Origin: Escherichia phage PMBT16
Sequence record: PP554575
DNA: 64,000 nucleotides
Strand: one strand, 5' to 3'
A program made the translations under genes and the position numbers. The notes beneath the pieces are model-generated. The model was not told the DNA's origin, did no database searches, and saw only the letters and a list, made by a program, of their open reading frames with translations. Of this stretch, positions 8,248 to 8,285 are shown piece by piece (the stretch's first letter is position 1; the number at the start of each line of letters is the position of its first letter).

Positions 8248-8285
8248 TTGACAACAGTGATGGGGCCTAATATAATAGCCCCATC
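8248..8285 (+). promoter_or_regulatory. sigma70-like promoter (TTGACA-N17-TATAAT) with palindrome GATGGGGC/GCCCCATC flanking the -10
   Basis: Consensus hexamers; 8-bp inverted repeat 8259-8266/8278-8285 brackets the -10 (operator-like). Confidence 0.55.

Follow-up and report, generated by a model that had tools for sequence, protein, structure and literature searches.

A consensus sigma-70 promoter overlaps a candidate sense-strand RNA stem-loop between two small paralogous genes of an rV5-like Escherichia coli phage

We analyzed a stretch of 64,000 nucleotides of Escherichia phage PMBT16 (hereafter, the window) and focused on positions 8248 to 8286, where a promoter and an inverted repeat share the same nucleotides between two small genes. 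The best explanation for this site, which we hold at about an even chance, is a promoter combined with a sense-strand RNA stem-loop that acts on transcripts reading through from upstream, i.e., a cassette of the type called promoter-early stem-loop (PeSL) by Arbiol et al. 2010 (PMC2839356) and Comeau et al. 2014 (PMC4122927). If this reading is right, a stretch of 39 nt holds two overlapping signals, one in the DNA for the host RNA polymerase and one in RNA structure for the transcripts coming from upstream. The layout of a promoter with an overlapping stem-loop is already known from T4-like phages, and the site is a tidy and fairly ordinary case of it.

Phage and gene setting

The 8 kb or so surrounding the site share 97-98% identity with many rV5-like myophages of E. 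coli (genus Vequintavirus), and by this similarity the window is that of an rV5-like E. coli phage. Many of the rV5-like phages are candidates for therapy and biocontrol. Sixteen GenBank records of the MG0656xx series are titled 'Campylobacter phage' (e.g., L009) and are 92-98% identical to E. coli Vequintaviruses in this region. The one of them that was fetched, MG065644, is marked UNVERIFIED, and judging from these sequences the host label looks doubtful.

The site is located in a run of small genes on the + strand, just 3' of the gene of a family A DNA polymerase (4005-6782), after which other genera carry different small genes. The polymerase gene of the window is uninterrupted. Several relatives have it interrupted: a gene for an HNH homing endonuclease splits it in WalterGehring, isim, ime, EmilHeitz, and FFH2, and one for a LAGLIDADG endonuclease does so in Salmonella phage vB_Sen_SG_WM_RUS_R7 (L117), which is more distant. 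The genes on either side of the site are the following:

7990-8244, + strand: upstream paralog gene, 84 aa, pI 4.2, PHROG 12544; its stop codon TAA (8242-8244) ends 3 nt before the -35 hexamer
8308-8568, + strand: downstream paralog gene, 86 aa, pI 4.3, PHROG 11936; first gene of the unit of the promoter

The initial annotation had described these genes as paralogs, and our searches agree: the proteins are 29% identical (BLASTP, E 9e-8), there are cross-matches between PHROG families 12544 and 11936, and the structure model of one matches the ortholog of the other in phage CM1 (BFVD). On this evidence they are remote paralogs. Of the two motifs that they were said to share, GD.V.CT is present in both, and FKDCT is exact only in gene 7990-8244, since gene 8308-8568 has FRDCT. 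The shared columns are thus AF[KR]DCT and DD.GD.V.CT. Both proteins are acidic, with net charges of about -12 and -10, and a Pfam search of the two gave no significant domain, hence no DNA-binding domain. In its AlphaFold model (pLDDT 79), the product of gene 8308-8568 forms a small SH3-like beta barrel, for which structural matches were weak, and has neither the helix-turn-helix nor the ribbon-helix-helix fold of repressors.

We also considered gene 9267-9512 as a third paralog and rejected it, because the similarity is limited to a motif of 14 residues (DD.GD...C) and the hhalign probability is 39%. The profile of the small paralogs also matches two very long proteins, with nine separate stretches in P0014 (1213 aa) and five in P0016 (1973 aa), and the unit of around 50 residues may thus also exist as a tandem repeat in large proteins. 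Further upstream, the small genes 6832-7116, 7113-7340, and 7337-7531 stand in tandem and are an apparent second paralog family, with a common motif KD..G..W[YF] and cross-matches to PHROGs 12922 and 3249.

A consensus promoter conserved among relatives

The elements that we identified on the promoter side of the site, and the nearest promoter upstream of it, are as follows:

7910-7938, + strand: nearest upstream sigma-70-type promoter, TTGACA-N17-TAAGAT, scan score 10/12, likely origin of RNA that reads through into the stem-loop
8218-8247, + strand: AT-rich stretch 5' of the -35 hexamer (70% A+T vs 57% in the window), including the end of the upstream gene
8248-8253, + strand: -35 hexamer TTGACA, from the promoter scan, invariant in 50/50 related loci
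8271-8276, + strand: -10 hexamer TATAAT, from the promoter scan, TACAAT in rV5 and a few other relatives
8293-8299, + strand: Shine-Dalgarno sequence AAGGGGA, 9 nt before the ATG, AAGGAGA in some relatives

The promoter at 8248-8276 has a spacer of 17 nt and a consensus score of 12/12. Both the scans and the reading of the sequence thus recovered the perfect TTGACA-N17-TATAAT promoter of the initial annotation, at the same coordinates. It belongs to a set of four exact TTGACA-N15-19-TATAAT sites in the 64-kb window, where 0.11 would be expected by chance. For comparison, we collected 50 related loci, which are close relatives and comprise 22 haplotypes. The hexamers are almost invariant among them, while their neighbors vary freely: none of the six columns of the -35 and one of the six of the -10 are variable, against 4/5 in the adjacent spacer. 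The promoter is also backed by the downstream Shine-Dalgarno sequence (AAGGGG or AAGGAG in the 50 loci) and ATG, and by the record of phage Gotham, where a predicted promoter is annotated exactly at the equivalent place. These observations support a promoter that would be near-ideal for the host RNA polymerase with sigma-70. From the usual distance of 7 nt past the -10, we infer a transcription start near A8283, which falls within the 3' arm of the stem-loop described below. The leader at 8283-8330 is predicted to be unstructured (-0.4 kcal/mol).

The rV5 genome was described as having 33 sigma-70-type promoters spread over its length (PMC3606486). In the rV5 record, the equivalent of 7910-7938 is annotated as 'Sigma70-type promoter; P220'. 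The equivalent of the 8248 promoter is unmarked there because ORF 219 is annotated from the ATG inside TATAATG. A terminator scan of the + strand found no terminator-like site between the 7910-7938 promoter and position 8258. Our search of the literature for transcript maps of Vequintaviruses gave nothing useful.

The position of the promoter also bears on the start of the downstream gene. In relatives, some annotators use an upstream in-frame ATG, which is ATA in the window and which in phage CM1 reads into a stop codon. It follows that the start is at 8308 and that the 3' arm is non-coding. We therefore rejected a coding extension across this arm, as the ATG of TATAATG is missing in the window and a stop is found in CM1. 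The downstream gene was started too early in rV5 (L098:368-661), FV3 (L006:611-931), and slur12 (L103:411-731), at the ATG made by the -10 (TATAATG) or even at the TTG of the -35. The 11-20 residues thereby added at the N-terminus very likely reflect annotation errors, and the promoter/stem-loop reading would explain why such starts occur in several deposited genomes. In contig L132 it is the upstream gene that was called short (50 aa).

A stem-loop around the -10 hexamer

The inverted repeat has three parts:

8258-8266, + strand: 5' arm of the stem-loop, TGATGGGGC, in the promoter spacer (about -25 to -17)
8267-8277, + strand: loop of 11 nt, holding the -10 hexamer
8278-8286, + strand: 3' arm of the stem-loop, GCCCCATCA, at about -5 to +4, i.e., the GC-rich discriminator and the first transcribed bases

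A palindrome flanking TATAAT had been noted before, with half-sites GATGGGGC (8259-8266) and GCCCCATC (8278-8285). These are indeed exact reverse complements, and the repeat extends by one T-A pair beyond the 8 bp of the initial annotation, to 9 bp (8258-8266/8278-8286). In most relatives C8267 also pairs with a G at the position of 8277, which leaves a loop of 9 nt, TAATATAAT; the window has A8277. The hairpin of the window has a predicted folding energy of -15.8 to -17.1 kcal/mol (z = -2.6).

Perfect inverted repeats of 9 bp are not rare alone, since there are around 15 in the 64 kb, where roughly 4-5 are expected. When we considered the 40 nt over the spacer, the -10, and the discriminator, only 0.5% of random windows of 40 nt folded as well. 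The fold is also the most stable among the 54 promoter-like sites of the window, with a chance expectation of 0.27 at such a level, a rank that is marginal on its own given the 54 sites tested. These 54 sites show no general enrichment in folds overlapping the promoter. Stable folds just 3' of the promoter-like sites of the window are mildly enriched (P = 0.025).

The stem is followed by AAAACGAAAG, with no T within 10 nt. The terminator scan did not report the site at 8248-8286, and we rejected a canonical intrinsic terminator at 8258-8286 because the stem has no U-tract after it and the loop is of 9-11 nt. The stem-loop shares with the intrinsic terminators of this phage (1067-1092, 11790-11811, 19280-19299) a GC-rich stem right after a stop codon on the coding strand, but these have the U-tract and loops of 3-6 nt. 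The Rfam curated covariance models gave no match to positions 7000-10000 of the window at E up to 1. The Shine-Dalgarno sequence (8293-8299) and the AUG at 8308 are outside of the stem, which ends at 8286. They are unpaired in the centroid fold and predicted to be accessible in both RNA forms, the one reading through from upstream and the one started locally. A cruciform or a single-stranded promoter of the N4 or Frpo type was rejected, since the loop is too long; it is also countered by the G.T mismatches of most relatives and by the location of the -35 outside the stem and of the -10 in the loop.

The arms vary and the pairing is mostly kept

Within the intergenic region, variation is highest in the two arms, where 11/18 columns vary, against 1/12 for both hexamers. 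The haplotype of the window is GATGGGGCC/AGCCCCATC. None of 90 GenBank records has an identical segment of 77 nt (best 97.4%), and the perfect palindrome is found in no other GenBank phage record and, among the Logan contigs, only in L127. The commonest haplotype, GATGGGGCC/GGCCCTATC, includes one G.T, which makes the DNA palindrome imperfect. Relatives also carry GATAGGGCC/GGCCCTATC, rV5 has GATAGGACC/GGTCCTATC, and the haplotype GATGGGGTC/GGCCCTGTC has three G.T or T.G pairs. The one lineage with three such positions pairs as RNA of the + strand, and neither as RNA of the - strand nor as symmetric DNA.

We then compared the two strands. An unbroken stem of 9 bp, G.U pairs allowed, is found in 41/50 loci on the + strand and in 14/50 on the - strand. 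The 18 haplotypes that were folded range from -8.7 to -18.3 kcal/mol on the + strand, while on the - strand two lineages have -3.1 and -4.7 kcal/mol and the commonest type has -13, vs -18 on the +. Some pairs went through several states: A-U, G.U, and G-C are all seen at pair 21-41 of alignment A5, and G-C, G.U, and A-U at pair 24-38. Changes preserving the pair are more widespread than those breaking it (one-sided Mann-Whitney P = 0.013, on our own parsimony list of inferred events), and the latter stay rare among the loci. One of the exceptions is a central mismatch, G-to-T at the fifth pair, in contigs L119 and L120. The + strand bias comes from the frequencies of the changes and rests largely on one old A-to-G change. 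Double changes are few, as they concern only two pairs, each in one of 15 haplotypes. These patterns are suggestive of a palindrome that behaves as a sense-strand RNA stem, with pairing retained with a bias for the + strand and with weak formal covariation.

One might ask if the stem has a function of its own. It could be a chance or hitch-hiking inverted repeat of a GC-rich spacer and discriminator, conserved because the genomes are close kin, which we consider rather unlikely. This explanation is favored by the shuffle controls for covariation, which were not significant: 12 of 500 shuffles reached the observed score with 11 sequences, and 45 of 500 with 15 haplotypes, values that are suggestive only. 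It is also in line with single changes, which, when counted as events, split about evenly between those that keep a wobble and those that give a mismatch, as well as with the presence of some 15 perfect inverted repeats of at least 9 bp in the window and with the 0.27 promoter-like sites expected to reach this folding level by chance. However, the arms are the most variable positions and nine pairs are yet kept in 41/50 loci, each folded haplotype keeps at least -8.7 kcal/mol on the + strand, variants that break pairs stay rare, and the layout recurs at 9534, at 15345, and in another genus (see below).

We searched for more distant relatives of the site. A scan of IMG/VR with the invariant 16-mer gave 82 loci, of which only L038 and L086 are real relatives, as the pattern is too short; a longer pattern gave three loci in metagenomes. 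The downstream protein, searched with tBLASTn and in two protein searches, had no relatives beyond close Vequintaviruses: the matches were in 115 phage records, in 11 clusters with at least 81% identity to the query, and in 12 among 1.84 billion representatives. This restriction to close Vequintaviruses makes deep covariation unobtainable.

Resemblance to the PeSLs and proposed mechanism

The PeSLs of phages RB49 and phi1 have a TTGACA-N17-TATAAT promoter, preceded by an AT-rich region with the stop codon of the previous gene, and a stem made of a G-run, a loop, and a C-run, with G-T pairs, commonly over the -10 and followed by a Shine-Dalgarno sequence and a start codon (PMC2839356; PMC4122927). 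Their promoters are very strong and their stem-loops cut lacZ expression like a strong terminator (PMC2839356; PMC4122927). The 8248 site has the same elements in the same order: the AT-rich 8218-8247 (70% A+T) holding the TAA at 8242-8244, a near-consensus sigma-70 promoter (12/12) with hexamers conserved across 22 haplotypes, GGGG/CCCC arms bracketing the -10 in a fold of -15.8 to -18 kcal/mol with G.U pairs in most relatives, and, at the 3' end, the Shine-Dalgarno sequence (8293-8299) and the ATG at 8308. It is also placed, like them, between small genes of unknown function in an early region. There are differences. The host phage is a Vequintavirus and not T4-like. The PeSLs are a repeated family of ~100 bp, while the 8248 stem sequence is single-copy in the 64-kb window (of a genome of roughly 137 kb), and no insertion, deletion, or gene replacement maps to the 8248 cassette in the sampled genomes. 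Finally, promoter and terminator activities were measured for the PeSLs, and those of the 8248 cassette are proposed from its sequence. By analogy, the site would work like a PeSL, and we class it as PeSL-like, a candidate member of the family from another group of phages. If so, the idea of promoter/terminator cassettes would extend from T4-like to rV5-like phages.

In the mechanism that we propose, the sigma-70 promoter would drive the downstream run of small early genes, from 8308 to about 9512. The stem-loop would be written into the positions that the promoter leaves unread, namely the spacer (-25 to -17) and the discriminator with the start (-5 to +4). Locally started RNA would begin at ~8283, within the 3' arm; without the 5' arm it could not form the hairpin, so that its leader and ribosome binding site would be open. 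The hairpin would form only in RNA started upstream, at the 7910 promoter or further back, and reading through gene 7990-8244. We infer such read-through because no terminator-like site separates the 7910-7938 promoter from the hairpin, which RNA from upstream should then carry, 14 nt past the stop codon of gene 7990-8244. There, it might damp read-through by pausing or attenuation, or block 3'-to-5' decay by exonucleases. In either case the hairpin would set where the upstream message ends, and the downstream gene would have to rely on its own promoter. With a canonical terminator and T4-type gating of translation set aside, attenuation of the read-through transcripts or protection of their 3' end are the most likely roles.

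The hairpin might instead act on translation or processing rather than on transcript ends, by tuning the loading of ribosomes on gene 8308 or by marking a cleavage site (e.g., for RNase E). In that case the two transcript lengths would serve different uses, much as with T4 genes e, soc, and I-TevI. We regard this as unlikely. The geometry speaks for it, since in read-through RNA the hairpin is ~7 nt upstream of the Shine-Dalgarno sequence, the stem ends at 8286, where the upstream footprint of an initiating ribosome (roughly 20 nt) would begin, and an A-rich single-stranded stretch follows the stem; moreover, as the promoter start falls within the 3' arm, the hairpin is restricted to read-through RNA. 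Against it, the Shine-Dalgarno sequence and the AUG are outside the stem and predicted to be accessible in both RNA forms, and a stem of 9-10 bp is too short for RNase III.

The T4 genes e, soc, 49, and I-TevI have hairpins with an internal late promoter. The 8248 site resembles them in having a promoter inside the hairpin region, such that the hairpin is present in the long RNA and missing from the one that starts internally. However, the hairpin of the T4 genes buries the ribosome binding site and gates translation, whereas at 8248 the Shine-Dalgarno sequence and the AUG are outside the stem and predicted to be open. As they are open in both RNA forms, gating of translation of the e/soc type is unlikely, and we rejected it.

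Recombination and operator readings

Another explanation is at the DNA level. The promoter and stem-loop could be a recombination cassette, serving as a short patch of homology or as a hairpin of single-stranded DNA in the shuffling of the flanking small genes, which we find very doubtful. The PeSLs of RB49 and phi1 have been linked to insertions, deletions, mini-circles, and crossovers in or near the loop (PMC2839356), the small genes after the DNA polymerase gene differ in other genera, and G.T pairs are tolerated in hairpins of single-stranded DNA too. Yet, in the loci sampled the site keeps its two neighboring genes and shows no breakpoint of insertion or deletion, and the stem sequence has no second copy in the window to recombine with.

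The initial annotation had proposed that the palindrome points to autoregulation or a regulator-controlled switch. In this explanation a dimeric regulator, either one of the paralogs or another protein of phage or host, would bind the half-sites bracketing the -10 and switch the promoter. Our analysis does not bear this out, given the variable arms, the imperfect palindrome of most relatives, and the acidic paralogs, and we now see an operator as highly improbable. The geometry is suitable: the 9-bp arms are centered 20 bp apart, about two helical turns, and lie on both sides of the -10, so that a protein bound to them would obstruct RNA polymerase. Besides, the phage needs some means to shut off its early promoters, for which the rV5 paper suggests only an Srd-like anti-sigma candidate (PMC3606486). 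The site is in this respect like the palindromic operators of the lac/lambda type, i.e., an inverted repeat over the core promoter with half-sites about two helical turns apart, but here the half-sites lack conservation, match imperfectly in most relatives, and are unrepeated in the window. They differ among phages that are 90-98% identical, even though the candidate proteins are conserved; this counts against an operator because the half-sites of a conserved regulator should be conserved. Which arm haplotype a phage has does not follow from its allele of the downstream protein. As DNA, the palindrome of the commonest type is imperfect, and that of lineage L111 has only 6/9 matching positions. 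There are no further half-site copies in the window, as a search for GATGGGGC with at most one mismatch gave 30 matches where 34 are expected, which is no signal of a regulon. Neither of the acidic paralogs (pI 4.2 and 4.3) has a Pfam DNA-binding domain, the structure model is an SH3-like barrel, and no candidate DNA-binding protein was found for the 8248 palindrome. A palindrome overlapping a promoter, one should note, need not be an operator.

Related cassettes elsewhere

The layout behind our preferred reading, a -10-like hexamer within a hairpin, has counterparts in the window. The unit that starts at 8248 ends at 9512 and is followed by a hairpin of the same kind:

9534-9564, + strand: hairpin AGAAGGGGAUGCUA-AAA-UAGUGUCUCCUUCU with a U-rich tail, closing the unit that starts at 8248

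This hairpin has 14 bp, is rich in G.U pairs, and is nearly invariant in seven relatives. It is more stable on the + strand (-19.6 kcal/mol) than on the - strand (-13.0 kcal/mol). In its apex is the -10 of a weak promoter at 9523-9551, TTGTAA-N17-TAAAAT, and a promoter is annotated there in phage Gotham. A third case is the canonical terminator at ~15345-15373 (region ~15333-15385), which reads AGGAGGAnnTC...GAnTTCCTCCT and is followed by TTTTGATATTTT. It carries TAAAAT in its loop, 17 nt after TTGCCA, such that a terminator and a promoter-like site are superimposed. Stems over a -10 occur in the window at only three sites (8248, 9523, and 15333), and their sequences are unrelated.

Outside the genus, we found the layout of the 8248 site in Cronobacter phage EspYZU12 (OP819284), at L118:16912-16968. 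In the 60-nt gap between ORF28 and ORF29 there are a stop codon in an AT-rich stretch, TTGACA-N17-TAACAT, a Shine-Dalgarno sequence, and an ATG. The stem, AAGGGGTA/TACCCCTT, has 8 bp plus outer pairs, is centered on the -10, and folds at -17.7 kcal/mol.

It is conceivable, if a long shot, that PeSL-type cassettes are a convergent and general design of large lytic phages, in which a hairpin marks transcripts by their origin, and not a peculiarity of the T4 family. Read-through RNA would then be tagged by a hairpin and be ended, stabilized, or processed, while locally started RNA would be free of it, and each block of small early genes would be an insulated and portable module of expression. In a stronger variant, the hairpin, whether in RNA or in + strand DNA, would be recognized by a phage factor that times when early genes are shut off. 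The 8248 site offers a defined and easily mutated test case for the insulation of small early phage genes.

The window also holds other combinations of promoters and hairpins. A repeated cassette is found at 17217-17273, 17889-17945, 19767-19823, and 23865-23905, and also at 23599, 24082, and 25338. Its order is an AT-rich stretch, TTGACA-N16-TAnAnT, ~10 nt, a hairpin GGCGGGAA-N3-TTCCCGCC, a Shine-Dalgarno sequence, and an ATG. The hairpin is near-identical at 17217, 19767, and 23865, with a shorter variant at 17889 (CGGGAAAACTTCCC at 17931). In contrast to the 8248 site, it is located in the 5' leader of the transcript of its own promoter. Finally, the terminator stem GCCCTGCCCGAAAGGGTGGGGC with its T-run is present in two copies ~10.7 kb apart, at 1067-1092 and 11790-11811. 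The former is ~20 nt after a promoter scoring 11/12 (1018-1046), an arrangement that would give a very short or attenuated transcript.
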